From an archaeon (GTDB taxonomy: Archaea > Undinarchaeota > CAZHTU01 > JBDRCC01), in contig JBDRCC010000001.1 in NCBI GenBank assembly GCA_043822065.1, forward strand, positions 1-64,000: a stretch of 64,000 nt of DNA, read 5' to 3'. The notes beneath the pieces were generated by a model. The model was given only the letters and a program-made list of their open reading frames with translations, was not told where the DNA came from and ran no database searches. The stretch's first letter is position 1, and the number at the start of each line of letters is the position of its first letter. Positions 25,792 through 38,292 of the stretch are shown here, one piece after another. The position numbers were made by a program, and so were the translations under genes.

Positions 25792-25843
25792 GAGCTGGGA
25801 AATTGTTTTAAGGTTAGACCTACTAATTCAAAGGGTGCCTGAT

Positions 25844-25917
25844 GCCCGGATGGGGTAGTCTGGATATCCTGACGGCTTGCGGAGCCGTTGACCCGAGTTC
25901 AAATCTCGGCCCGGGCA
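25844..25917 (+). tRNA. tRNA-Arg(GCG), no encoded CCA
   Basis: Anticodon arm ACGGC-TTGCGGA-GCCGT, T arm CCGAG-TTCAAAT-CTCGG; one A-C mismatch at the base of the acceptor stem. Confidence 0.92.
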
Positions 25918-25949
25918 CTTATTTAAAAATAGGGGAGTTTAGGGAAATC

Positions 25950-27647
25950 ATGTGGGATGACTTCAAAGCCGAGGTAAAGAAAGAGGTAAATTTTGCGCTT
26001 AAGGAGCTCGACGCGAGCCTGTCAATTGACTCGTTTGAGCAGCCGCCGGGAGGCTTCGGCGACCTCAGCACGACGGCGCCGCTCGTCCTTGCCAAAGAGC
26101 TCGGCAGGAAGCCGCGGGACATCGCAAAGGATATGCTTGACATAATCTCGACCAGGAAACACAAGCTTATTTCAAAGGTTGAGGTTGCTGGGCCCGGGTA
26201 TTTGAATTTCTATTTAGATTATGACAAGTCCGCAGGCGTGCTAATTGCGGATGTCCTGAAGAAAAAGGACAACTACGGCAAGAGCGCAGTTGGAAAGAAA
26301 AAGAAGACGCTTGTCGAACACACTTCGGCAAACCCAGACGGTCCTCTGCACGTCGGGCATTTTAGGAACTCTGTCATCGGCGACTGCCTTGCCAGGCTGC
26401 TGAATTTTGGGGGATATGACGCGTCCACCGAGTTTTACGTTAATGACGGCGGAAGGCAGATGGGAGTCTGCCTCTGGTCGTATATGAATTTCCACGCAGG
26501 GGAGAAGCCTGACGGAAAGAAGGACCACTGGGTTGCCAAGGTCTATATTGACGGGAACAAGAGGCTTGAGGGAAATGAGGAAGGGGAAAAGCAGGTTGCG
26601 CAGCTCCTTTTGGATTATGCCGCAGGAAAGCACCAGGAAACCTGGAGCAAGGTAGTCGACTGGTGCCTTGAGGGGCACAAGCAGACGCTTGAGGGGCTTG
26701 GGATATCCGTAGACGCTTACCACAAGGAAAGCCGTGAGGTGTGGGACGGCTCCGTAAAAAAGATGATAAAGCTCGTGGAGAAGAGCAAGAATGCGCTGAA
26801 GGATGGGGAGCTCCTCGGAATGGACCTGAAGGAGCACGGCTTCGAAAAGGAGTTCCTGGTCAGGAGGTCGGACGGGACGATACTGTACGGCGCAAAGGAC
26901 CTGGCGTATCATTTTTTCCATAAGGCTGGGCAGGCGGATTGGATGATAAATGTCCTCGGCTCAGACCACAAGCTGTATTACGGGCAGCTGAGGACGGCGC
27001 TGAACCTCCTTGGCGTAAAGCAGAAATTTGACGTCGTGCACTACGAGTTCCTCACCCTGCCGGAAGGGCAGATGAGCACGCGGAGGGGGACATATATCGC
27101 GGTCGACGATCTAATCGCAGAGGCGCGGAAGAGGGCGCTTGCCGAAGTAAAGAAGAGGCGGAGCGACCTTTCGGAGAAGGAGATGCTCAAGATTGCGGAC
27201 GGGGTCGCGGTCGGCGCGCTGAGGTACTCTATAGCCTCGATTTCCCCGGAGAAGCCGATATTTTTCAAATGGGAGGACGCGCTGAACTTTGACAAGAGCT
27301 CCGCCCCCGCGCTCCAGTATACTTTTGCAAGGACGACGAGGATACTTGAAAAGTCGAAGGAGAAGCCGGACCCAAAGGTAAAGTCGCTTGAGGAAAGCGA
27401 AAAGATGCTCGTCAGGAAGATTGCAAGGTTCCAGGAGACTGTTGAAAAGGCGGCGAGCGAGCTCCGACCGCACGTAATCGCTAACTACGCCGACGAGCTG
27501 AACACGGCGTTCAAGGATTTTTACGCAAAGTGCCAGGTCATTGGCTCTGACAAGGAGGCGCAGCGGCTTGCAATAGTAAAGGCAGTCAACCAGGTAATGA
27601 AGAACTGCCTGAATATCCTGGGCATTGAGCCGCTGGCGGTGATGTAA
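25950..27647 (+). CDS. argS: Arginyl-tRNA synthetase
   Basis: EHTSANPDGPLHVGH, MSTRRG, LQYTFAR; start moved to ATG 25950 because the longer ORF runs through the tRNA. Confidence 0.97.
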   Translation: MWDDFKAEVKKEVNFALKELDASLSIDSFEQPPGGFGDLSTTAPLVLAKELGRKPRDIAKDMLDIISTRKHKLISKVEVAGPGYLNFYLDYDKSAGVLIADVLKKKDNYGKSAVGKKKKTLVEHTSANPDGPLHVGHFRNSVIGDCLARLLNFGGYDASTEFYVNDGGRQMGVCLWSYMNFHAGEKPDGKKDHWVAKVYIDGNKRLEGNEEGEKQVAQLLLDYAAGKHQETWSKVVDWCLEGHKQTLEGLGISVDAYHKESREVWDGSVKKMIKLVEKSKNALKDGELLGMDLKEHGFEKEFLVRRSDGTILYGAKDLAYHFFHKAGQADWMINVLGSDHKLYYGQLRTALNLLGVKQKFDVVHYEFLTLPEGQMSTRRGTYIAVDDLIAEARKRALAEVKKRRSDLSEKEMLKIADGVAVGALRYSIASISPEKPIFFKWEDALNFDKSSAPALQYTFARTTRILEKSKEKPDPKVKSLEESEKMLVRKIARFQETVEKAASELRPHVIANYADELNTAFKDFYAKCQVIGSDKEAQRLAIVKAVNQVMKNCLNILGIEPLAVM

Positions 27648-28566: not shown

Positions 28567-28643
28567 GGGCCTGTAGCGCAGACTGGAAGCGCGAGTGGCT
28601 TCGGACCACTAGGTCGGGGGTTCAAATCCCTCCAGGCCCGCCA
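28567..28643 (+). tRNA. tRNA-Arg(TCG) with encoded CCA
   Basis: GGGCCTG/CAGGCCC acceptor, AGTGG-CTTCGGA-CCACT anticodon arm, GCCA end. Confidence 0.95.
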
Positions 28644-28715
28644 TAATATTTGTAGGTGGTTTTCTTTGGGGTAATGCATAGACCTTTCTTTTTCTAAAAG
28701 AAAGGGATTCGCTGA

Positions 28716-28733
28716 AAATCCCTCCAGGCCCGC
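28716..28733 (+). repeat. 18 bp exact duplication of the tRNA-Arg(TCG) 3' end
   Basis: AAATCCCTCCAGGCCCGC at 28624-28641 and 28716-28733. Confidence 0.9.
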
Positions 28734-28746
28734 TTATTTTCAGTTT

Positions 28747-29997
28747 TTATGCCGTTGGGTCTGCGACCTTTCCGATGAAAATGATGTTCCCGGTCTCTGT
28801 TTCCTGTATGATAAAGAGGAAGGGGTGGTCCGCGCGGAATATTTTAGGGGGCATGGGAAACCCCGTAAACTTCATTGCGACACCCGTTGCTGCTGCGACC
28901 TCGGTTCCCTCTTCGTTGACATCGATGTAAGCCTGGTGGAGCACTATGCCAATGTAAAGGTTCCGCGTGCCGTCCATCCCAGAAAAGTCTGCCTTGGCTG
29001 GCGAGAACGCCGTTGGCATTCCCATGGAGATTAGGCTGTTTGTCAGGTCGTATTTGGTCTCAAAGGTGAACTTCGGGAGATAAACATCGACATCTTCGGC
29101 TTGCAGCTTGGCTCTCCACTCGCTTAGTTTCTCAAGGGACAGTGAATTTTCTAAGGCGGAAATATCCCCATCTTTTGGCAGGAGAACCAGCATGGAGAGC
29201 TGCTCTCCCACGTAGGGCATTTCAAGTATCTGGAGGTCATCCGTTTCTGTATATTTAAAGTTGGCTTCTTCCCCCGTCAGCTTCATCATTGGAACCTTGA
29301 CAGTTTTGTAAGGGCTGACGCGGAAGTCTTCGTCCCTGGTGTCCGCCTTGTCAAACTGCTTGAGCCAGTCGCCCTTGAAGTAAACCGCATTTGTAAGCAC
29401 GAAGCTTGTGTCTGGGGTTATTGTGCCCTCTGGAAACAGGTCTTTTATTTTGTTGTTAGTCTGACCTTCGACCCATGTGTTGATTGTGATGCGCGATTTC
29501 TCGGTTTCCCGGAGAAAGTCAACATTGGTTGCCTTCCCGCCATAGTATGATTCGACTGTGGTGAGGTACCCGTCCAGGAACTTGTAATCCTGCTGGGCCC
29601 AGAGGGCATTCGCAGTGTGGAGCTTGTACGCCTTGCCCTCTGCATTTAGCCGGTTGTAAAGGCTGGCGAAGGATGAGCGGCGGGCGGTGTCGTCTTCTGG
29701 AAAGTGGAATACGCCCAGCATCTCCTCTGCTGTCTCGCCGCGGGCGCCTTCGTATGCCATGGCTAACGCCGTGGAAATGCTCCAGGGGGAAATGAATAGG
29801 TTCTCGCCATCGGCTTTCAGTTCAGAATACGCGGCCAGGGCAAATTGCGTATTTGAGCCTATAAGCCCGCTGACCCCCTCCGGTGTTGCCTGGCTATCGT
29901 CTGCTGGTTGAGGGGAGGCTGGCGGCCTATCGCCGGTGCAGCCCATTGCAAGAACAAGGGCAAGCAGAAGCCATACGGGGAGGATTCCATTCTTCAT
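28747..29997 (-). CDS. Serpin, predicted lipoprotein
   Basis: Lipobox LAMGC; NLFISPWSI, NAVYFKGDW, hinge EEGTEVAAAT, FRADHPFLF. Confidence 0.93.
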   Translation of the reverse strand: MKNGILPVWLLLALVLAMGCTGDRPPASPQPADDSQATPEGVSGLIGSNTQFALAAYSELKADGENLFISPWSISTALAMAYEGARGETAEEMLGVFHFPEDDTARRSSFASLYNRLNAEGKAYKLHTANALWAQQDYKFLDGYLTTVESYYGGKATNVDFLRETEKSRITINTWVEGQTNNKIKDLFPEGTITPDTSFVLTNAVYFKGDWLKQFDKADTRDEDFRVSPYKTVKVPMMKLTGEEANFKYTETDDLQILEMPYVGEQLSMLVLLPKDGDISALENSLSLEKLSEWRAKLQAEDVDVYLPKFTFETKYDLTNSLISMGMPTAFSPAKADFSGMDGTRNLYIGIVLHQAYIDVNEEGTEVAAATGVAMKFTGFPMPPKIFRADHPFLFIIQETETGNIIFIGKVADPTA

Positions 29998-30137
29998 TGT
30001 ACCTAGTAGATAAGCGCGGCGTTATATAATTTTTTTGTTTTGCAGGGCGGCAGGGGAAAAGCTTAGCTAGGGGATGCGGGCTGGTTTCAGAGTTTAGAAA
30101 CCAGCATATTTATTAATGACTCTGAGTATCCTAAATT

Positions 30138-30809
30138 ATGATAAAGCTAAAGGACTGGATAACCCTTGCAAACCTTGCGTTTGGGTTTGCCGCGATAATA
30201 TTTATTCTAGAGGGGGACTACCAGACGGGCACCAGGTTCATACTCCTCGCCGCGCTTGCGGACGGAAGCGACGGATTCATCTCAAGGAAGTTCTCAAAGC
30301 CTGACGACTACGGGCGTGAGCTTGACTCGCTATGCGACTTAGTCTCATTCGGCGTCGCGCCGGCTCTTTTGATATACAAGTCGATTGTGGGCGGGTTCCT
30401 CGGGATATTCGTCGGGCTCGCGCTCCTTTCAGCAGCAGCCCTGCGGCTTGCGAGGTTCAACCTGGTTTCAGGAGGGGACCGCTCGCTTTTCATCGGTCTC
30501 CCGGTTCCGGCATCCGCGATACTTGTCGTGACCTACTTCAATACTCACATAGTGCTTGAGAGGTACCTCATAACCGCGTTCCTGCTTTTCCTTGCCCTGC
30601 TTAACATAAGCGAGTTCAGGTACCCAAGCCAGAAGAGGGGCCTGAAGAAGCGGCAGGTTCTTGCGCTGGTCATAATTATCGGGTTCTTCCTGTACTATGT
30701 AAAGGAGGGGCTCATGTGGAACTTCCTGTTTGTGTCTGGCGTGATATACCTGATGGCGCCGCTGTATTACGGCATAAGAAAGTATATTCCGCCTAGGCTC
30801 CAGCTATAA
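30138..30809 (+). CDS. pssA: Archaetidylserine/phosphatidylserine synthase
   Basis: ADGSDG..GRELDSLCDLVSFGVAP, LRLARFN, FIGLPVP. Confidence 0.9.
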   Translation: MIKLKDWITLANLAFGFAAIIFILEGDYQTGTRFILLAALADGSDGFISRKFSKPDDYGRELDSLCDLVSFGVAPALLIYKSIVGGFLGIFVGLALLSAAALRLARFNLVSGGDRSLFIGLPVPASAILVVTYFNTHIVLERYLITAFLLFLALLNISEFRYPSQKRGLKKRQVLALVIIIGFFLYYVKEGLMWNFLFVSGVIYLMAPLYYGIRKYIPPRLQL

Positions 30810-31395
30810 CTGAGATTCCTGCCTTCAGCTTGTCCCCTTTGGAAACTTTTGGCTTAAGCCTTGGAGGGAGGGTGACATCGCACCGCGAGCCGAAGCGTAT
30901 CATGCCGAAGCGCTGGCCTTGCGAGAGCGTATCGTTTTCTGAAACCCAGGTGACAATCCGCCTTGCAAGGATTCCGGCAAAGCGCTCGATTTTTAGGTTC
31001 CCTGATTTTGTTTTGAGGGTTATTGCCTCCCTCTCGTTTTCTGAGGATTTTTTCGAGAATGCCGGGGCAAATGTACCTCTCTGGTAGGATATCTTGAGGA
31101 CCTTTCCATCACAGGGCATGCGGCTTATGTGGACGTTGAACGGCGACAAGAAGACGGATATCCTGTTCTTTGAAACAGAAACGACAGTTCCGTCCGTCGG
31201 CGAGAGCAAGCCAGGGATTTTTTTAATCCTGCGCTCAGGGTCGCGGAAAAAGTAGATTGTAAAACAGAGGAACGCGAAAGAAAGCCAGAATATGTACCTT
31301 GAAATGGCTGTTTGGAATGCGTAATACGCTAAGCCTATGGAGGCAGTTAGCGCAAGGACTGGGATGATGATTACGGAGGAGCCCCTCGCGAGCAT
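30793..31395 (-). CDS. psd: Archaetidylserine/phosphatidylserine decarboxylase proenzyme
   Basis: FFRDPER, SPTDG, FLSPFNVH, self-cleavage motif RFGSR. Confidence 0.9.
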   Translation of the reverse strand: MLARGSSVIIIPVLALTASIGLAYYAFQTAISRYIFWLSFAFLCFTIYFFRDPERRIKKIPGLLSPTDGTVVSVSKNRISVFLSPFNVHISRMPCDGKVLKISYQRGTFAPAFSKKSSENEREAITLKTKSGNLKIERFAGILARRIVTWVSENDTLSQGQRFGMIRFGSRCDVTLPPRLKPKVSKGDKLKAGISVIAGA

Positions 31396-31910
31396 CAGTA
31401 TGGAACCTCCTTGAGCTTGGCAAGGTACGCGAGTATGTTGAAGCTCCTGTGGATGAGGGGGGTTACAAGGATTAGGAAAGCGGCCTGCACCGGGTTCACA
31501 TGTATCCGGATGCTTACAAAGAGAAGTGCGAATATTATAAACATAATCTGGTCAAGGATACTCGCATTTGCGCCTGACGTGAAGCCGAGCCGCCTTTTGA
31601 TGAAGCTGCCGAAGATATCACCAAATATCGTTCCAGACGCGAGCAGGAAGGCTGAGCCGGCTGTAAGCTGGCTTGCGAGAGGATATGCTGCGAGGAACGG
31701 CGCCGATAGGAAGTATGCGGCAGTGCCGCAGAGTATTCCAAGGACTGTGCCGCGGATGGTCTTTCCCTTTCCAAGTATAGGCCTGCCGTCGCGGAATTTT
31801 TTCCCGAAGTCGAGCGGCCTGCCTCCGCCAAAAAGGACGGGGGAGGCGTTAGCAACGTAGGCAGGGATGATAAACAGGAATGCGTCAACGAGCATGGCTT
31901 GGCTAAGCAA
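31395..31910 (-). CDS. carS: CDP-archaeol synthase
   Basis: PAYVANASPV, DGRPILGKGKT, GDIFGSFIKRR, LDQ, LKEVPY. Confidence 0.92.
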   Translation of the reverse strand: MLSQAMLVDAFLFIIPAYVANASPVLFGGGRPLDFGKKFRDGRPILGKGKTIRGTVLGILCGTAAYFLSAPFLAAYPLASQLTAGSAFLLASGTIFGDIFGSFIKRRLGFTSGANASILDQIMFIIFALLFVSIRIHVNPVQAAFLILVTPLIHRSFNILAYLAKLKEVPY

Positions 31911-31965
31911 ATTATTGATTTAAAGGTTTGGGTAAATATTTAATAAGGCTGGGTTTAGTCGTATT

Positions 31966-32667
31966 ATGCCCCTAAACGACTACAGGAAGCAGGCGGACGT
32001 GGTTCTCATGCCGCTTGCAAGGCGATGGATCGACATAAGCCCCAACAAATTCAGCGCCATGTCGATGTTCTGCGCAGTCCTCGCCGGGCTGTGCTTTTAC
32101 CTTGGCGGGTGGCTGCTTGTTGGCGCGGCTGTTTTTGTTTTCCTAAACGCGCTGTTTGACGCCGTTGACGGGAAGATAGCAAGGCTGACAAAGAACACGA
32201 CCCAGAGGGGGGACTTTTTGGACCATATAATCGACAGGTATTCTGACATCGTCATCCTGCTTGGGATAATGTACTCTGCCTACGGGCACGTGGGGCTCGG
32301 AGTGTTCGCGATAATAGGCACCGTAATGACAAGCTACATAGGCACCCAGGCTGAGGCGAGCGGCGGAAAGCGCGAACGGGGAGGCCTGCTAGGGAGGGCG
32401 GACCGGATTGTGATAGTAATGTTCCTGCCGCTGGTGCAGGGAGCCATGCTGATGTACGGTACGCTGGTGCAGGGATTCATGCTGATGTACGGTACGCTGG
32501 TGCCGGGATTCATGCTGATGTACGGCATTGGGCAATTTTACGGGCTTTACCTGACCGGCTGGGTCCTGCTGCTTCTTGCATTAACAGGAAACTACACTGC
32601 GTTCAGGAGGTTCCAGCTGACCTGGTCGCGGATTGGCGGGAAGAAGTATAGGGGGGAAAAACTGTGA
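31966..32667 (+). CDS. CDP-alcohol phosphatidyltransferase (archaetidylinositol-phosphate synthase/PgsA-like)
   Basis: DAVDGKIAR..GDFLDHIIDRYSD signature, GLLGRADR. Confidence 0.88.
   Translation: MPLNDYRKQADVVLMPLARRWIDISPNKFSAMSMFCAVLAGLCFYLGGWLLVGAAVFVFLNALFDAVDGKIARLTKNTTQRGDFLDHIIDRYSDIVILLGIMYSAYGHVGLGVFAIIGTVMTSYIGTQAEASGGKRERGGLLGRADRIVIVMFLPLVQGAMLMYGTLVQGFMLMYGTLVPGFMLMYGIGQFYGLYLTGWVLLLLALTGNYTAFRRFQLTWSRIGGKKYRGEKL
32430..32525 (+). repeat. In-frame 33 bp tandem repeat, about 3 copies
   Basis: Near-identical units (consensus GCTGGTGCAGGGATTCATGCTGATGTACGGTAC) encoding LVQGAMLMYGT/LVQGFMLMYGT/LVPGFMLMYG. Confidence 0.9.
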
Positions 32668-33095
32668 ACGTTGAAGAGGTAATGACCAAGGACGTCGTCG
32701 TCATAACAAAGGGCGCCAGTGTGAAAGACGCAATAGACTCGATTGTCCAGTTCCACGTCGGCTGCGTGCTTGTCATTGAGAACAGCACCGCAATCGGCAT
32801 AGTGACCGAGCGGGACGTCCTCAAGAAGGTCATCTCGCCAGGGAAGGACCCCAACCTCCTAAAGGTGGAGGACATAATGTCCACGCCACTGGTCACGGTT
32901 GAGCCAGACAGCAGCATAGAAGCGGCAGGGGCACTGATGGTCGAGAACAATATCAAGAAGCTGCCCGTAGTAAGAGATGGGGAGCTGGTAGGCATACTGA
33001 CTGCGACGGACATCGTAGCTAACGAGCCGCGACATGTCATTGAGCTTTCCGAGCTGATGCTGAAAAGCGGCGTTGAAGCAGGCGTTGGTGGCTAA
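32664..33095 (+). CDS. CBS domain pair protein
   Basis: VEEVMT, GIVTERD, VEDIMS, KLPVV..LVGILT. Confidence 0.9.
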   Translation: MNVEEVMTKDVVVITKGASVKDAIDSIVQFHVGCVLVIENSTAIGIVTERDVLKKVISPGKDPNLLKVEDIMSTPLVTVEPDSSIEAAGALMVENNIKKLPVVRDGELVGILTATDIVANEPRHVIELSELMLKSGVEAGVGG

Positions 33096-34060
33096 TGGGA
33101 ACCCTAAAACTGAAGGCGACAATGCTTTTGACGTTTTTTCTGGTATTTGGCGTCCTATTTGCGTTCCTGTCTATTGTTTCGCTTTACTTCGGCTTTGGCG
33201 CATACGGGGCGCTTTTCATAAGCCTATTTTTTGTCACGGCGCAATGGTATTTCAGCCCCAAGCTGATAAGATGGTCCACCAAGATGCAGCCGCTCCAAAA
33301 GGGCGAGAACGCCTTTCTTGAGAACGCTGTCGAAGACCTTGCCAGGGAGGCTGGAATCCCGGCGCCGCAGATTGCAATAGTCCCGGACCCGACGCCAAAC
33401 GCGTTTGTCTTCGGAAGGACTGTGAAGAGCTCCATGCTGGCAGTCCACCAGGGGCTTTTGAACACGCTCAGCAAGGATGAGGTCAAGGCAGTGCTCGCCC
33501 ACGAGATAGGGCACCTGAAGCACAGGGACTGCCAGCTGATGACTGTTGTCTCTGCCATTCCGCTGGTGGCATACATGATGTGGAGGAGCACGTTCTTCAC
33601 CAGGCGGCGGAGCAAGGGGGGCGGAGCAATGATTGCGGTGGGGATAGCCTCGCTCCTGGTTTATTTCCTTTCACAGCTTCTTGTCCTTTCCCTGAGCCGG
33701 CTTAGGGAGTATTATGCCGACGCATATTCGGCGAAGGCGACGGGAAAGCCGTCCGACCTCGGAAGCGCACTTACCAAGATAAGCCTCGGGCTTTCAAGGG
33801 CGGAGAAGACCGGGAACTTGAGGGCTTTTTACATAGGGGACCCGATAACCGCAAGGCGGGAAATATCTGCCGTGGCAAACCGCTCAAGCCAGTATGATGT
33901 GAACGGGGACGGAGTCCTGGACGACGCGGAGCTCCAGCGCGCCCTGAAGGAGGAGTCTGCGAGCAGGGGCGCAAGGCTGCTTGAGCTTTTCTCGACCCAT
34001 CCAAGGGTATTCAGGCGCCTGGACGCGCTTAAAAAAATAGAAGGGGAGTTAGCCGCTTAG
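33095..34060 (+). CDS. htpX: HtpX-like zinc metalloprotease (M48)
   Basis: PNAFVFG, AHEIGH, SRLREYYAD, FSTHP. Confidence 0.93.
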   Translation: MGTLKLKATMLLTFFLVFGVLFAFLSIVSLYFGFGAYGALFISLFFVTAQWYFSPKLIRWSTKMQPLQKGENAFLENAVEDLAREAGIPAPQIAIVPDPTPNAFVFGRTVKSSMLAVHQGLLNTLSKDEVKAVLAHEIGHLKHRDCQLMTVVSAIPLVAYMMWRSTFFTRRRSKGGGAMIAVGIASLLVYFLSQLLVLSLSRLREYYADAYSAKATGKPSDLGSALTKISLGLSRAEKTGNLRAFYIGDPITARREISAVANRSSQYDVNGDGVLDDAELQRALKEESASRGARLLELFSTHPRVFRRLDALKKIEGELAA

Positions 34061-34077
34061 GCTAACCCGCTATTTTC

Positions 34078-35418
34078 TTATTTCAGGTGTTTCTCAACAA
34101 ACTCGTCGAGGACCTGCTCGATTGAGGGGTTGCTTATTGACGTAATGTCATAGGATACCCTGACAATCGGCTTGTTGCACTTCACGAGCTTGGCGAGGTC
34201 AATTGGGCTCCCGTCGACAACGACGTCGCATTTGGCGGCGTTTATTGTTGTCTCCAGGTCCTTGAGCTGCTCCTCATTGTACCCCATTGCCGGGACGATT
34301 TCTTTCAGTTGGGGGAACTCCTCGAAGATTGCCTTCATCGTCCCAACCAAATAGGGCGTTGGGTCGATGATTTGAGCCCCGCCTTCCTTGGCGGCGACAT
34401 AGCCCGCGCCGAAGCTCATCCCGCCGTGGGTGAGGGTTGGGCCGTCTTCCACGACGAGAACCTTCTTTCCTTTGATGCTTTGGGGGTCTTCGACGCTCAC
34501 TGTGGAATTCGTCCGTATTATCTTCGCTTGCGGGTTTATCCTCTTGATGTTCCTTTCGACGGTTTTCACGTCCTCCGGCTTGGCGTTGTTCATCTTGTTG
34601 ATGATTACTGCGTCTGCGACGCGCACGTTCACTTCACCGGGGTGGTACTTGATCTCATGGCCGGGCCTGAGCGGGTCTGCGACCACGAATTCCAGGTCAG
34701 GCACGTAGAAAGAAACCTCGTTGTTTCCGCCGTCGAACACTATCACGTCAGCCTCTTTTTCTGCCTGGCGGACGATTTTCTCATAGTCGACGCCTGAGTA
34801 GATTACAAGGCCCTGTTCGATGTAGGGCTCGTACTCTTCCCGCTCCTCGATGGTGCAGTGGTTCTTTTCGAGGTCTGCGTATTCTGCAAACCTCATGACT
34901 TCCTGCTCGACGAGGTCTGCATAGGGCATCGGCTCCCGAATTGCTACGACCTTGAACCCTTTGCCCTTGAGGTAGCGGTAAACCGCCCTGGAGACCTGGC
35001 TCTTTCCGCAGCCGGTCCTGACAGCGGTAACCGCGACTACCGGCTTGGTTGACTTAACCATTGTGTTATTCCTGCTGATTAGGCGGTAATTTGCTCCGGC
35101 GGCGAGTGCTATTGAGCCCTTGTGAACGACTTCCTCGTGGGAAACGTCGGAGTATGCTAAAATGACTTCGTCAATTTTGTTTTTCTTGACAAATTCGCTG
35201 AGCTTTGCCTCCGGAATCATCGGGATGCCGTTCGGGTAAAGCTTCCCTGCCAGCGCGGGCGGGTATTTCCGCTCGGCTTCCTCAATCGTTCCGACGTTCT
35301 GTTCGCCCGCAACGGTGAAGGCTTTCACGTCGTAGTCCTCATTGTCCCTGAAAACGGTGTTGAAGGTGTGGAAGTCCATACCCAGTGCACCGATAATAAC
35401 AACACTAGTCTTTTTCAA
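34078..35418 (-). CDS. Arginine synthetase ArcE-like P-loop protein (cDPGS-related, often annotated GTPase)
   Basis: DFHTFN, LAGKLYP, AVRTGCGKS, CTIEEREEYEP, DGGNN, VEDGPTLTHGGM; adjacent to carbamate kinase and a carbamoyltransferase. Confidence 0.75.
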   Translation of the reverse strand: MKKTSVVIIGALGMDFHTFNTVFRDNEDYDVKAFTVAGEQNVGTIEEAERKYPPALAGKLYPNGIPMIPEAKLSEFVKKNKIDEVILAYSDVSHEEVVHKGSIALAAGANYRLISRNNTMVKSTKPVVAVTAVRTGCGKSQVSRAVYRYLKGKGFKVVAIREPMPYADLVEQEVMRFAEYADLEKNHCTIEEREEYEPYIEQGLVIYSGVDYEKIVRQAEKEADVIVFDGGNNEVSFYVPDLEFVVADPLRPGHEIKYHPGEVNVRVADAVIINKMNNAKPEDVKTVERNIKRINPQAKIIRTNSTVSVEDPQSIKGKKVLVVEDGPTLTHGGMSFGAGYVAAKEGGAQIIDPTPYLVGTMKAIFEEFPQLKEIVPAMGYNEEQLKDLETTINAAKCDVVVDGSPIDLAKLVKCNKPIVRVSYDITSISNPSIEQVLDEFVEKHLK

Positions 35419-35468
35419 TTTGAAACCCCCTTACATTTCATAACTAGAATATAGGGATATGGCTGATG

Positions 35469-36401
35469 TTATTTAAACTTTTCCTTGAAAATCTGAGTTC
35501 CAGCGCTTCCGGAGACTGCAGCCTCGAGGTTGTCTATCGAGGTGATGACCGCACGCTTGCCGCCTGACTCGAGGAATTCTATCGCCGCCTCCACCTTTGG
35601 GCCCATGCTCCCTGGGGGGAAGTGCCCCGCAGCAAGGTATTTTTTCGCCTCTGCGGCGGTCAGGCTGTTCAGCTCGACCTCGGTAGGCTTCCCGTAGTTG
35701 AGCGACACCTTGTCGACGTCGGTCAGGAGAATCATTGCGTCCGCCTTTATCTCCTGCGCAAGCTTTGAGGTCGCAAGGTCCTTGTCAATGACTGCCTCCA
35801 CCCCGCGAATTTTCTCGCCGCGCTCAATCATCGGTATCCCTCCGCCGCCGCAGGCAATGACAATTATGCCCATGCGGACGAGCCGCCTTATCTCCTCGCG
35901 CTCTAATATCCTCAGGGGCTTTGGCGAAGGGACGACGCGCCGGTAGCCCTTGCCGTGGATTGGTATCGTCTGGAAGGGAAGCTTTTCGGCCTCCCCTTTG
36001 GAGTAGTACGGCCCTATCGGCTTTGTCGGGTTCTTGAAGGCGGGGTCGTTTTCGTCGACGACGACGCCGGTGACTATCGTGGCAATCAGCTTGTCGACTT
36101 TCAGCTTGCGGAACTCGTTTTCGAGCGCACGCTCTATGAGATAGCCGAGCAGGCCCTGGCTTTCCGCGACGAGGACTTCAAGCGGCATTTTCGGGACGGC
36201 GTGGGCCGCCTCCTGCTGGAGGAGGAGGTAGCCAATCTGCGGGCCGTTGCCGTGAGTGAGCGCAATGTTGTACTTGGCGGCTAAGTGCGCTATCTGGCGG
36301 CATGGCTCCGAGAGGTTCTTCCTCTGCTCGTCAAACGTGCCCTTCTGTCCGTGCTTTATCAGGGCATTTCCGCCGAGCGCGATAACAATAGTTTCACCCA
36401 T
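35469..36401 (-). CDS. arcC: Carbamate kinase
   Basis: IALGGNAL, THGNGPQIG, GGGGIP, EAVIDKD, GSMGPK; start at MGETIV. Confidence 0.96.
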   Translation of the reverse strand: MGETIVIALGGNALIKHGQKGTFDEQRKNLSEPCRQIAHLAAKYNIALTHGNGPQIGYLLLQQEAAHAVPKMPLEVLVAESQGLLGYLIERALENEFRKLKVDKLIATIVTGVVVDENDPAFKNPTKPIGPYYSKGEAEKLPFQTIPIHGKGYRRVVPSPKPLRILEREEIRRLVRMGIIVIACGGGGIPMIERGEKIRGVEAVIDKDLATSKLAQEIKADAMILLTDVDKVSLNYGKPTEVELNSLTAAEAKKYLAAGHFPPGSMGPKVEAAIEFLESGGKRAVITSIDNLEAAVSGSAGTQIFKEKFK

Positions 36402-36440
36402 GGGAAAATATAAAGCTTCGTTCTTTATTAACCATGCGAA

Positions 36441-37355
36441 ATGGTGCGGCATTTACTTTCTATAAACGACATGACCAAAGAGAGGGTAGAGAAGATACTC
36501 GACAAAGCCTCCGAGCTTAAGGCTGGACGGAAGAGACTTGCAGGCAGGGACGCGCTGCCCGGGAAAAACCTGGCGATGATTTTCGAGCGGGCTTCGACCA
36601 GGACGAGAATAAGCTTTGACCTGGCGATAACCGAGCTCGGCGGGCATGCGATGGAATTGAGCCCGAGCACCCTGGCGATGAGCAAGGGGGAGAGCCTCGA
36701 GGACACTGCGCATGTCATGGAGCGGTTCTACGACGCGATAATGATACGGACCTACAGCCACGAGACGCTGAAGAGGTGGGCGTCGGTCGCAAAAATCCCG
36801 ATAATAAACGGGCTTGACGACGTCGAGCACCCATGCCAGGCGATATGCGACATGCTCACCGTAAGGGAGCACTTTGGCAAGCTGAAGGGGCTGAACTTCG
36901 TCTTCGTTGGGGACTGCGACCAGAACATGGCAACTTCTCTGGCGCTCATTTGCGGCATGATGGGCCTGAACTTCACCGCCGCATGCCCGAAGGAATACCA
37001 GACCAAGGGCTGGGTCCAGAAGCAGATAAAGGGCAAGATAAACTTCAGAATCGAGCACGACCTCAAGAAGGCGGCAAAGGATGCAGATGTGATATACACT
37101 GACATCTGGGTGAACCCAGGCTTCGAGAAGGAGAAGGAAGCGAGGCTGAAAATCCTGAGACCGTACCAGGTGAACGAGGAAGTGGCGAAAAGCGCTCCGG
37201 ACGACTACGTTTTCATGCACTGCCTGCCAGCCAACAGGGGGCAGGAGGTCACGGACGAGGTAATCGACAGCAAGAACTCGATAGTCTTCGAGCAGGCTGA
37301 AAACAGATTGCACGGGCAGAAGGGCATATTGATTGATTTGATTACGGGGCTATAG
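36441..37355 (+). CDS. arcB: Ornithine carbamoyltransferase family enzyme
   Basis: STRT, HPCQ, HCLP, QAENR; the SMG loop is replaced by NPG. Confidence 0.8.
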   Translation: MVRHLLSINDMTKERVEKILDKASELKAGRKRLAGRDALPGKNLAMIFERASTRTRISFDLAITELGGHAMELSPSTLAMSKGESLEDTAHVMERFYDAIMIRTYSHETLKRWASVAKIPIINGLDDVEHPCQAICDMLTVREHFGKLKGLNFVFVGDCDQNMATSLALICGMMGLNFTAACPKEYQTKGWVQKQIKGKINFRIEHDLKKAAKDADVIYTDIWVNPGFEKEKEARLKILRPYQVNEEVAKSAPDDYVFMHCLPANRGQEVTDEVIDSKNSIVFEQAENRLHGQKGILIDLITGL

Positions 37356-37394
37356 AGAAAAGTTTTAAACTGCAGAATTGATTAGTCGGTTTAG

Positions 37395-37504
37395 GCTCCG
37401 GTAGCCTAGTTTGGATAAGGCGTCAACGGAAATTGGAAAAACCCAAATCCGGCGCAAGCCTTCTAAGCTGAAGACCGCGGGTTCAAATCCCGCCCGGAGC
37501 GCCA
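37395..37504 (+). tRNA. tRNA-Arg(TCT) with a 32 nt intron at 37426-37457 (position 29/30) and encoded CCA
   Basis: GCTCCGG/CCGGAGC acceptor; removing 37426-37457 restores TCAGC-CTTCTAA-GCTGA; BHB-like 4 bp helix GCGT/GCGC with CAA and AAG bulges. Confidence 0.9.
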
Positions 37505-37589
37505 CTTTATAGTTCTGAGCGGAGCGAAGACTAAGGTAGTTTTCTTTTTCGTCGACGTTTTTCTTTTTCTAAAAGAAAAAGGCCGTGAG

Positions 37590-37606
37590 AATCCCACCCG
37601 GAGCGC
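37590..37606 (+). repeat. 17 bp duplication (1 mismatch) of the tRNA-Arg(TCT) 3' end
   Basis: AATCCCGCCCGGAGCGC at 37486-37502 versus AATCCCACCCGGAGCGC at 37590-37606. Confidence 0.88.
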
Positions 37607-37611
37607 TTATT

Positions 37612-38292
37612 TTATTCAGAGGCGCCGAATGTGTTTTGAGTATTTTTTGCTGGCGGCTTTTTTTCAGTAGGTGCAGGCTTTGCCTTTTCAGGCTCCTCCT
37701 CGTCCATGCCGCCGAAGCTACCAAAGTCATCTTTTTCCACTGCCCCTGGCAACGGCTCCTCAGTTTTTGGAGCCGGGAGAACCTTGGTCACTATGAACTC
37801 CACGCCGAAATAGAAAATGACGAAGAAAAGCAGGATGCCGACAAGGGTCGGTATCGTGTCTACCGGGCGGATGAGGTAGGGTGAGTAAATGAACGGGGTG
37901 AACACTATCAGGAAGTAGGACACCTCGCGTATTCGCCCTATCGCCTTCGCGACCTCACGCCCCTGGATTGCCATACGCATTATGATTAGCCCGTAGATGA
38001 GCATTGCAACTGCAACGCCGACCTTGAACGCGACGAGGGGAGTTATCCTGGCGATGTTGAGCCGCGAGAACATTGTCCTAATCCAGTCAATCCCTACCCA
38101 CAGGGCAGTAAGCCCGTTTGCGGCGGCGTTGCCCAAGTCGGTCCCCCTCCGCTCCTGGTAGTAGTCGTTGACAATCCAGTTTAGGTATACTGGGATAAGT
38201 ATCCAAAGCATCTCCGGGTTGTCGTATGGGCCGTAAACAAAGACCTTCCAAAGCCCCTGGGGGATGAGAATGAGGAACTCTACAAATTCCAT
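37612..38292 (-). CDS. Hypothetical multi-pass membrane protein
   Basis: About 5 hydrophobic segments and a charged low-complexity C-terminal tail. Confidence 0.65.
   Translation of the reverse strand: MEFVEFLILIPQGLWKVFVYGPYDNPEMLWILIPVYLNWIVNDYYQERRGTDLGNAAANGLTALWVGIDWIRTMFSRLNIARITPLVAFKVGVAVAMLIYGLIIMRMAIQGREVAKAIGRIREVSYFLIVFTPFIYSPYLIRPVDTIPTLVGILLFFVIFYFGVEFIVTKVLPAPKTEEPLPGAVEKDDFGSFGGMDEEEPEKAKPAPTEKKPPAKNTQNTFGASE

Follow-up and report, generated by a model that had tools for sequence, protein, structure and literature searches.

Very similar introns occupy different isoacceptor tRNA genes in the Thermoproteales, at canonical and non-canonical sites (Fujishima et al., 2010, as relayed in PMC4090602), and the 2014 review that describes them calls the mechanism of archaeal intron transposition 'still unknown' (PMC4090602). 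How Asgard tRNA introns arrive 'remains open' according to a 2026 preprint, and short direct repeats have been reported near the borders of introns in general in a 2025 paper whose sample included only four archaeal ones (PMC11782384). Closer in architecture to the loci treated here are the introns at position 59/60 in the T-loop of ARMAN-2 tRNA genes (PMC3239211) and the disrupted tRNA gene of Caldiarchaeum (PMC3293823). We have analyzed a 64,000-nt stretch of DNA (the window; contig JBDRCC010000001.1, positions 1 to 64,000, of the undinarchaeotal assembly GCA_043822065.1) in which tRNA-Arg(TCG) and tRNA-Arg(TCT) are each followed by a mini-insert and a partial copy of their own 3' end. Both inserts belong to a dispersed two-hairpin repeat, here called E, whose core also occurs in the introns of archaeal tRNA genes and within rRNA genes.

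Like the Thermoproteales introns, E occurs as similar introns across isoacceptor tRNA genes, which implies spread at the DNA level (PMC4090602). It differs from them in crossing phyla, being found in DPANN archaea, Altiarchaeota and others, and in having a defined, covarying hairpin core; moreover, some copies are not intronic but stand at gene ends between direct repeats of 17-45 bp, a form not, to our knowledge, reported for the Thermoproteales introns. With the 59/60 introns of ARMAN-2 the window loci would share the T-loop slot and a relaxed bulge-helix-bulge (BHB) motif formed by the T-stem, a 4-bp helix and two bulges. Unlike those introns, they carry a redundant, complete, CCA-bearing 3' end ahead of the 'intron', which makes splicing dispensable, and the body of the insert is a multi-copy repeat (PMC3239211). 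The Caldiarchaeum case is alike in that a tRNA fragment is duplicated beside an insert and intron gain is tied to a mobile element. However, that insert measures 1.8 kb and encodes a recombinase, whereas the inserts in the window measure 72-85 bp and have no open reading frame (ORF), and their genome holds no dedicated integrase (PMC3293823).

We favor, at somewhat better than even probability, an account in which both mini-inserts are copies of E, a member of an intron-core family, lying in the 59/60 intron slot of their tRNA-Arg genes, where they arrived by insertion at the DNA level and now serve as terminators. The architecture on which this account builds had been noticed in a preliminary description of the window and was borne out at both loci (Table 1). 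Each tRNA ends in an encoded CCA and is followed by a spacer of 72 bp (Arg-TCG) or 85 bp (Arg-TCT), an 18-nt copy of its own 3' end and the trailer TTATTTT; the two versions of the 3'-end segment are identical at 18/18 positions at the first locus and at 16/18 at the second. The hairpin, the T-rich box and the TGA before the downstream copy are likewise present in both spacers. The 19-nt hairpin matches the window at exactly these two places and was absent from 100 shuffles (0/100). The 32-nt intron that tRNA-Arg(TCT) carries elsewhere in the gene (37428-37459) appears to be placed in the anticodon stem and not at 37/38, and ARAGORN misses the gene unless its intron mode is used.

Table 1. Positions in the window of the two tRNA-Arg genes, their E copies and the duplicated 3' ends.
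Feature	Position	Strand	Basis
tRNA-Arg(TCG), complete, encoded CCA at 28641-28643	28567..28643	+	ARAGORN; Rfam tRNA, 65.8 bits; BHB scan
T-loop TTCA of Arg-TCG, candidate strand A of the BHB helix; putative 5' splice site after 28626	28621-28624	+	sequence, BHB scan
Upstream copy of the Arg-TCG 3'-end segment (T-loop A57 to discriminator +1)	28624..28641	+	exact 18-mer repeat
E copy behind Arg-TCG, lacking the 5' hairpin module	28644..28715	+	nhmmer, E-value 2.6e-14; alignments; fold
Parts of this E copy: T-rich box; hairpin core; lower stem; TGAA	28654-28667; 28685-28703; 28678-28710; 28713-28716	+	alignments, fold
Arg-TCG downstream 3'-end copy (28716-28733) with native-type trailer TTATTTT (28734-28740)	28716..28740	+	sequence, hBH motif, trailers of relatives
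Putative original 3' exon of the Arg-TCG locus; putative 3' splice site after 28718	28716..28740	+	in-register hBH motif
tRNA-Arg(TCT), 32-nt intron near the anticodon arm, CCA at 37502-37504, T-loop TTCA at 37482-37485	37395..37504	+	ARAGORN intron mode; Rfam, 49 bits
Upstream copy of the Arg-TCT 3'-end segment	37485..37502	+	repeat comparison
Full-length E copy behind Arg-TCT	37505..37588	+	nhmmer, E-value 3.3e-19
Parts of this E copy: AT-rich start; 5' hairpin with conserved loop; T-rich box; hairpin core; TGAG	5' hairpin 37514-37530; T-rich box 37534-37547; hairpin core 37560-37578; TGAG 37586-37589	+	
Arg-TCT downstream 3'-end copy (37589-37606, 2 mismatches) with TTATTTT (37607-37613)	37589..37613	+	sequence

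An nhmmer profile built from the first copies places both spacers in a larger family. They are two of 14 copies (E-value at most 5.7e-5) of an ORF-less repeat in the genome of the window (G000; 1.03 Mb in 22 contigs, 82% complete, the window being its contig C1), and two further, weak matches in the same search cover the hairpin only and lie in the introns of tRNA-Phe and tRNA-Leu(CAA). The proposal that the two spacers are related, ORF-less and non-autonomous thus holds at the level of a 14-copy family. Read from left to right, a full copy of E opens with an AT-rich stretch and continues with a short stem that encloses a conserved 11-base loop, then with a T-rich box and a long hairpin; the first of these hairpin modules is missing behind Arg-TCG. 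Compensatory changes are seen in the short 5' stem. The right end of E is precise, 0-10 nt past the long hairpin, and the left end is variable or truncated at its 5' side. Alignments of 14 and of 78 copies and folds of both window copies contain internal hairpins only, with no terminal inverted repeats, and the alignments of the genome copies show no 3' A-tail. For nine or ten of the 14 copies the start lies no more than 60 nt past the end of a co-oriented gene or tRNA, often between convergent genes. Over the window, Rfam 15 returned only tRNA matches at gathering score and nothing credible at an E-value of 10 or below over either locus. We found no published description of E in the literature searched, supplements not being covered.

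Outside this genome E is widespread. None of 16 other genomes of the same phylum carries it, whereas 27 of 49 Altiarchaeales genomes do, and multiple copies occur in two genomes of other phyla, G030 and G017. In the order of G017, E is present in 3 of 35 genomes, namely both members of the genus of G017 and one of the other 33. A strict 30-base pattern searched against genome contigs hit 70 loci (72 matches), all archaeal, among them loci in records labelled Pace-, Woese-, Nano-, Aenigmat-, Micr- and Iainarchaeota, Thermoplasmata and Methanobacteriota; neither this pattern nor a 20-base hairpin pattern matched any viral contig. Twenty-five of the 72 matches fall within ARAGORN-predicted tRNA introns near position 37/38, and 23 of these are antisense to the tRNA and start 2-8 nt past the 5' splice site. 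Another eight interrupt the T-loop at 59/60, all of them in places that ARAGORN misses, which brings the antisense copies to 31 of 33 in introns. Six matches abut tRNA 3' ends tail to tail, and E copies were found within 16S and 23S rRNA gene matches as well.

A conserved hairpin core of about 45 nt is common to the introns of at least 14 tRNA types and to rRNA genes of several archaeal phyla. Orthologous introns, such as those that two Altiarchaeales genomes carry in tRNA-Glu, have almost the same core, and the remaining intron cannot be aligned. Across 78 copies, 84.5% of the cells of the long hairpin pair and nine pairs are changed on both sides. Because the search pattern determined the upper stem, the lower stem alone is informative. 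The covariation score reaches 0.203 against 0.074 in shuffled alignments (none of 500 reaches 0.203) and at most 0.097 in slid registers. For this count the lower stem was supplied by hand, and RNAalifold applied to the 78 copies returned only the 9-bp upper hairpin.

Several of these loci deserve separate mention. In the Altiarchaeales, E lies in 16S and 23S matches that are about 145-150 nt longer than the span of the model (L042:1-1181, L046:1-2058, L126 and L129), which suggests rRNA introns made of the same modules, and a tRNA-Ala in an rRNA spacer of this order has a 158-nt intron with two inverted E copies. Between two species of one genus, a 43-nt intron of tRNA-Gly(CCC) is present in one and absent from the other (L043:1264-1337 against contig C131 of G110, L057/L058), and the gene without the intron has intron-like modules in its 5' flank. 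The neighboring tRNA-Val has a 5' fragment and E in both species, G017 and G110, with an extra E copy in G110; the comparison of the two yielded no clean filled and empty pair. Within the window, the M48 peptidase gene (33095-34060) found a single related locus among metagenome contigs, at 46% identity, which is of no use as an empty-site comparison.

Direct repeats flank E well beyond the background of its genome. An exact shared word of at least 10 bases spans the insert at 5 of 14 copies, compared with 67 of 3000 random placements. Besides the two tRNA-Arg loci, these copies lie in a promoter region (C13:28562, with repeats identical at 21/21 positions) and at two protein-gene ends (C20:55391 and C21:108561); at a sixth, behind a tRNA at C20:72202-72318, the repeat may have decayed. 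The repeats vary in length (18, 18, 21, 30 and 37 bp here, 17-45 bp in other genomes), and they are unrelated from copy to copy and share no att core. One fixed attP cannot explain both tRNA-Arg loci, as had been argued from the window, since each copy has its own flanking repeat. The duplication is not specific to tRNA genes, given the repeats at the protein-gene ends and in the promoter region.

The position of the repeats relative to genes follows a pattern. In the three protein-gene cases (the two above and L048 of another genome) the repeats end 0-2 nt past the stop codon, and all eight differing codons are synonymous or change one stop codon to another; two more differences, at the inner edges, are non-synonymous. 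The outer repeat boundary, read by eye, falls 0-2 nt from the gene end in 7/7 gene-3'-end cases, and all four tRNA 3'-end cases have repeats that start at T-loop position 57/58. Repeat-flanked copies occur in several other phyla, including perfect repeats of 32, 30, 23 and 17 bp, as do tandem (repeat-E)n arrays. Three such arrays (L072:401-540, L080:401-540 and L107:401-527) comprise at least two units with a period of 85-98 bp, in which E alternates with identical host segments of 40-55 bp; in L107 the host segment takes in the downstream gene's ribosome-binding site and its first five codons. We ruled out a CRISPR-like array, as the 'spacers' are identical within an array and no Cas1 match was found, and a diversity-generating retroelement, as the repeats are short and their differences not adenine-specific.

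The TGA that precedes both downstream copies acquires a possible meaning from the T-loop introns of other archaea. All eight end in four bases followed by AA, with T across the splice junction; in five, the four bases are the exact complement of the start of the gene's own T-loop (L094, with its TTCG/CGAA pair, is among them), and in the other three they match at three of four positions. The window loci carry the same feature before the downstream copy, as TGAA-AA and T at 28713-28719 and as TGAG-AA and T at 37586-37592, and a pacearchaeotal locus, L070, likewise has TGAA there. At Arg-TCG we find an in-register relaxed helix-bulge-helix (hBH) motif with an outer helix of 5 bp (the T-stem), a central helix of 4 bp (TTCA/TGAA) and no inner helix, in a permissive scan that yields 4-10 candidates per shuffled sequence and was used only for the presence of in-register motifs. 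The TGA would then be half of a BHB motif at 59/60, the complement of the T-loop TTCA, and because of this complementarity the downstream copy resembles an original 3' exon that has kept its splice site. At positions 57-59 the apparent repeat would then reflect the geometry of the splice motif and not duplication. When the eight T-loop cases were spliced in silico, ARAGORN called tRNAs for five, in a weak test, since it accepted many wrong junctions too. For annotation it matters that ARAGORN does not report the eight T-loop introns among the 72 matches.

Which of the two 3' ends is the older is suggested by relatives. Four genomes of the same phylum hold six tRNA-Arg(TCG/TCT) genes that have neither CCA nor E and whose trailers are similar to TTATTTT; for this reason the downstream copy with its trailer is most likely the ancestral 3' end, in agreement with the polarity proposed earlier. 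The role given there to CCA fared less well. That only these two tRNAs encode CCA is true of the four tRNA genes of the window, but genome-wide 11 of 41 ARAGORN tRNAs encode it, nine of them with no such insert. Two comparable tRNA 3'-end cases in other archaea, L070 and L084, bear CCA in neither copy, and a general link between CCA and the duplication is thus not supported. Among the tRNAs of G000, one reported by ARAGORN as a 93-nt 'tRNA-Gly(TCC)' (L027:161-253; contig C4:4060-4152, minus strand) is in fact tRNA-Arg(CCT), which contains a short intron, encodes its CCA and was mislabelled by the program; its 3' half differs by one base from that of tRNA-Arg(TCG).

We propose that E is a propagating, ORF-less element whose main niche would be BHB introns, at positions 37/38 and 59/60 of tRNA genes, and rRNA genes. 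At both tRNA-Arg genes it would occupy the T-loop slot, with the downstream partial copy as the original 3' exon and TGA(A/G) as the strand of a 4-bp BHB helix that pairs with the TTCA of the upstream gene's T-loop. Unusually, each locus has a second full 3' end (positions 60-76, including CCA) right at the putative 5' splice site, and the upstream gene is therefore complete without splicing. The arrival of E may have been an insertion at the DNA level coupled to duplication or replacement of the gene end. In its present place E most likely ends transcription, because a sense-oriented copy presents several U-tracts and a strong hairpin just past the tRNA. The antisense bias of the intron copies would fit selection against termination inside genes.

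A number of observations speak against this proposal. E stands in sense orientation at both window loci, as opposed to the predominantly antisense copies in introns, and it does not interrupt a gene there, since the upstream tRNA is complete through CCA in both cases. At Arg-TCT the outer BHB helix contains a C.A mismatch, so that the scan makes no call, and TTCA/TGAG includes a G.U pair. No in-register BHB was found at the repeat-flanked copies of protein-gene ends and the promoter region, which means that the BHB half-site is secondary or that more than one process operates. We found only one EndA catalytic gene in the genome (C6:22643-22900). Nor does our account explain the CA with which CCA is completed at both loci. 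Finally, no mobilizing enzyme is apparent: the genome, 82% complete, has no match to RVT_1, Y1_Tnp (PF01797), Cas1 or TnpB, and its sole tyrosine recombinase (one PF00589 match) is XerA (NF040815, 258.9 bits against a cut-off of 220). The search for an integrase, reverse transcriptase (RT) or HUH transposase that the preliminary description called for thus came back with XerA alone. Nor do RT and Y1 track E across the Altiarchaeales, where RT is present in 3/27 genomes with E and 3/22 without, and Y1 in 7/27 and 7/22, respectively.

We also weighed other accounts. Bacterial repetitive extragenic palindromic (REP) and bacterial interspersed mosaic element (BIME) repeats and miniature inverted-repeat transposable elements (MITEs) are short, structured and ORF-less, gather behind genes and can act as terminators. 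E resembles them in its short, structured, ORF-less form behind genes, but it lacks terminal inverted repeats and a short target duplication of constant length, we could find no Y1/RAYT gene, and it occurs inside introns. A MITE-like non-autonomous transposon, moved in trans by a transposase that makes wide staggered cuts and so duplicates 17-45 bp of target, could leave as survivors those insertions whose duplication regenerates an intact gene end. It would account for the many dispersed, ORF-less copies, for a precise right and a variable or truncated left end, for the perfect 21-bp repeat in a non-genic promoter region and the perfect repeats in other genomes, and for tandem arrays, which are expected from unequal crossing-over. 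We nevertheless regard it as improbable, since random staggered cuts would scatter the outer repeat boundary that in fact clusters at gene ends, and since the repeats of all four tRNA 3'-end cases begin at 57/58. The largely synonymous codon differences are unlike the neutral decay of a dead copy, the complement of the T-loop in TGAA is not predicted, repeat length varies, terminal inverted repeats are lacking, and the searches for Y1 and TnpB found no transposase. Two related candidates do not fit. An element derived from IS200/IS605, such as palindrome-associated transposable elements (PATEs) or REP sequences, is at odds with the lack of a PF01797 match, with the lack of association with Y1 across 49 Altiarchaeales genomes and with the presence of flanking repeats. 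A retroposon like a short interspersed nuclear element (SINE) would fit the variable left end and repeat length, but there is no RVT_1 match, RT does not track E and the A-tail is missing.

A somewhat less probable alternative is one in which cDNA of a spliced, CCA-tailed tRNA recombined with an intron-containing gene and set positions 60-76 at the junction of exon 1 and intron, a half-completed intron loss. At both loci CCA closes the upstream copy but is missing from the six relatives' genes, the extra piece comprises exactly positions 60-76 and sits at the predicted 5' splice site, and by our own arithmetic CA at both loci has a chance of about 1 in 256 if the two bases past the repeat are random. 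Yet with CCA encoded by 11 of 41 tRNAs anyway, its presence at both loci by chance comes to about 0.07, and L070 and L084 do without it. The same repeat architecture surrounds E at protein-gene ends and in a promoter, and tandem arrays exist in which no mature RNA end is involved. With no RVT_1 match in the genome, and with RT presence indifferent to E, the copying from mature tRNA by reverse transcription that had been suggested for the window is not supported. Site-specific integration by a tyrosine integrase, with the inserts as collapsed remnants whose attP supplied a replacement gene end, seems to us quite unlikely. The block of identity at the tRNA loci runs from the T-loop to the 3' end, reportedly the classical pattern of tRNA-targeting integrases (Williams, 2002), and direct repeats are present; repeat boundaries at gene ends and mostly synonymous differences also fit a replacement copy borne by the element. 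The model of Sugahara et al. (2012) is of this kind, and the same genome holds a separate insert of about 550 bp with a 33-bp repeat at tRNA-Tyr. Against integration stand the lack of any tyrosine recombinase other than XerA, the lack of ORFs in the inserts, a different flanking repeat at every copy and viral contigs free of strict-pattern and hairpin-pattern matches. The idea of collapsed integrative elements also fits poorly with the same contiguous unit being an intron core in other phyla. Least credible, in our judgment a very remote prospect, is that E is not mobile but a host terminator or RNA-processing module, its flanking repeats being local replication slips. It is true that E has U-tracts and a hairpin, that most copies follow a co-oriented gene or tRNA closely and that, within orthologous introns, conservation is far higher in the core than elsewhere. 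A generic terminator would be expected after most genes, however, and this genome, with about a thousand genes, has only 14 copies. The core differs very little across several phyla and yet is absent from 16/16 other genomes of its own; E also lies within introns antisense to the host gene, exists in 5' truncated copies and is flanked by 18-45 bp repeats at unrelated sites.

Insertion of E into the 59/60 slot at the DNA level, the account we favor, would give the two tRNA-Arg loci a wider meaning. We regard E as a mobile archaeal intron family in a form not described before, and its copies at the two loci may illustrate the arrival of tRNA and rRNA introns in archaea. The same hairpin core is found in introns and in plain DNA insertions with duplicated gene ends, which provides a concrete object for the question of intron arrival. 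It makes testable which enzyme recognizes the hairpin, whether the duplicated forms are precursors of introns and whether E doubles as a terminator. More speculatively, and with less than even probability, E could be the vehicle of BHB intron gain in archaea. It would be a DNA element, not autonomous, with the anticodon loop and T-loop of tRNAs, rRNA genes and gene ends as its points of entry, and it would persist wherever the splicing endonuclease can excise it or a duplicated end leaves the gene intact. If so, the two tRNA-Arg loci would be intermediates caught between an insertion with a duplicated gene end and a T-loop intron.

The insert at tRNA-Tyr(GTA) (G000 contig C7:22335-23013) resembles a separate, small integrated element without E. 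It carries a small minus-strand ORF and is followed by the 33-bp copy, which extends from the T-arm to the 3' end plus six trailer bases and has a different T-loop (GAG in place of AAA). In the window itself, genes connected with arginine cluster between 25844 and 37504. The gene for tRNA-Arg(GCG) directly precedes an ORF for arginyl-tRNA synthetase (25842-27647), tRNA-Arg(TCG) and tRNA-Arg(TCT) lie further on, and ORFs for an amino-acid kinase (35469-36452) and for an ornithine/aspartate carbamoyltransferase (36441-37355) terminate shortly 5' of tRNA-Arg(TCT). A full-length serpin ORF (28747-29997, minus strand; Pfam Serpin, E-value 3e-123) converges on the tRNA-Arg(TCG) locus, an unusual cargo for an archaeal genome of about 1 Mb.

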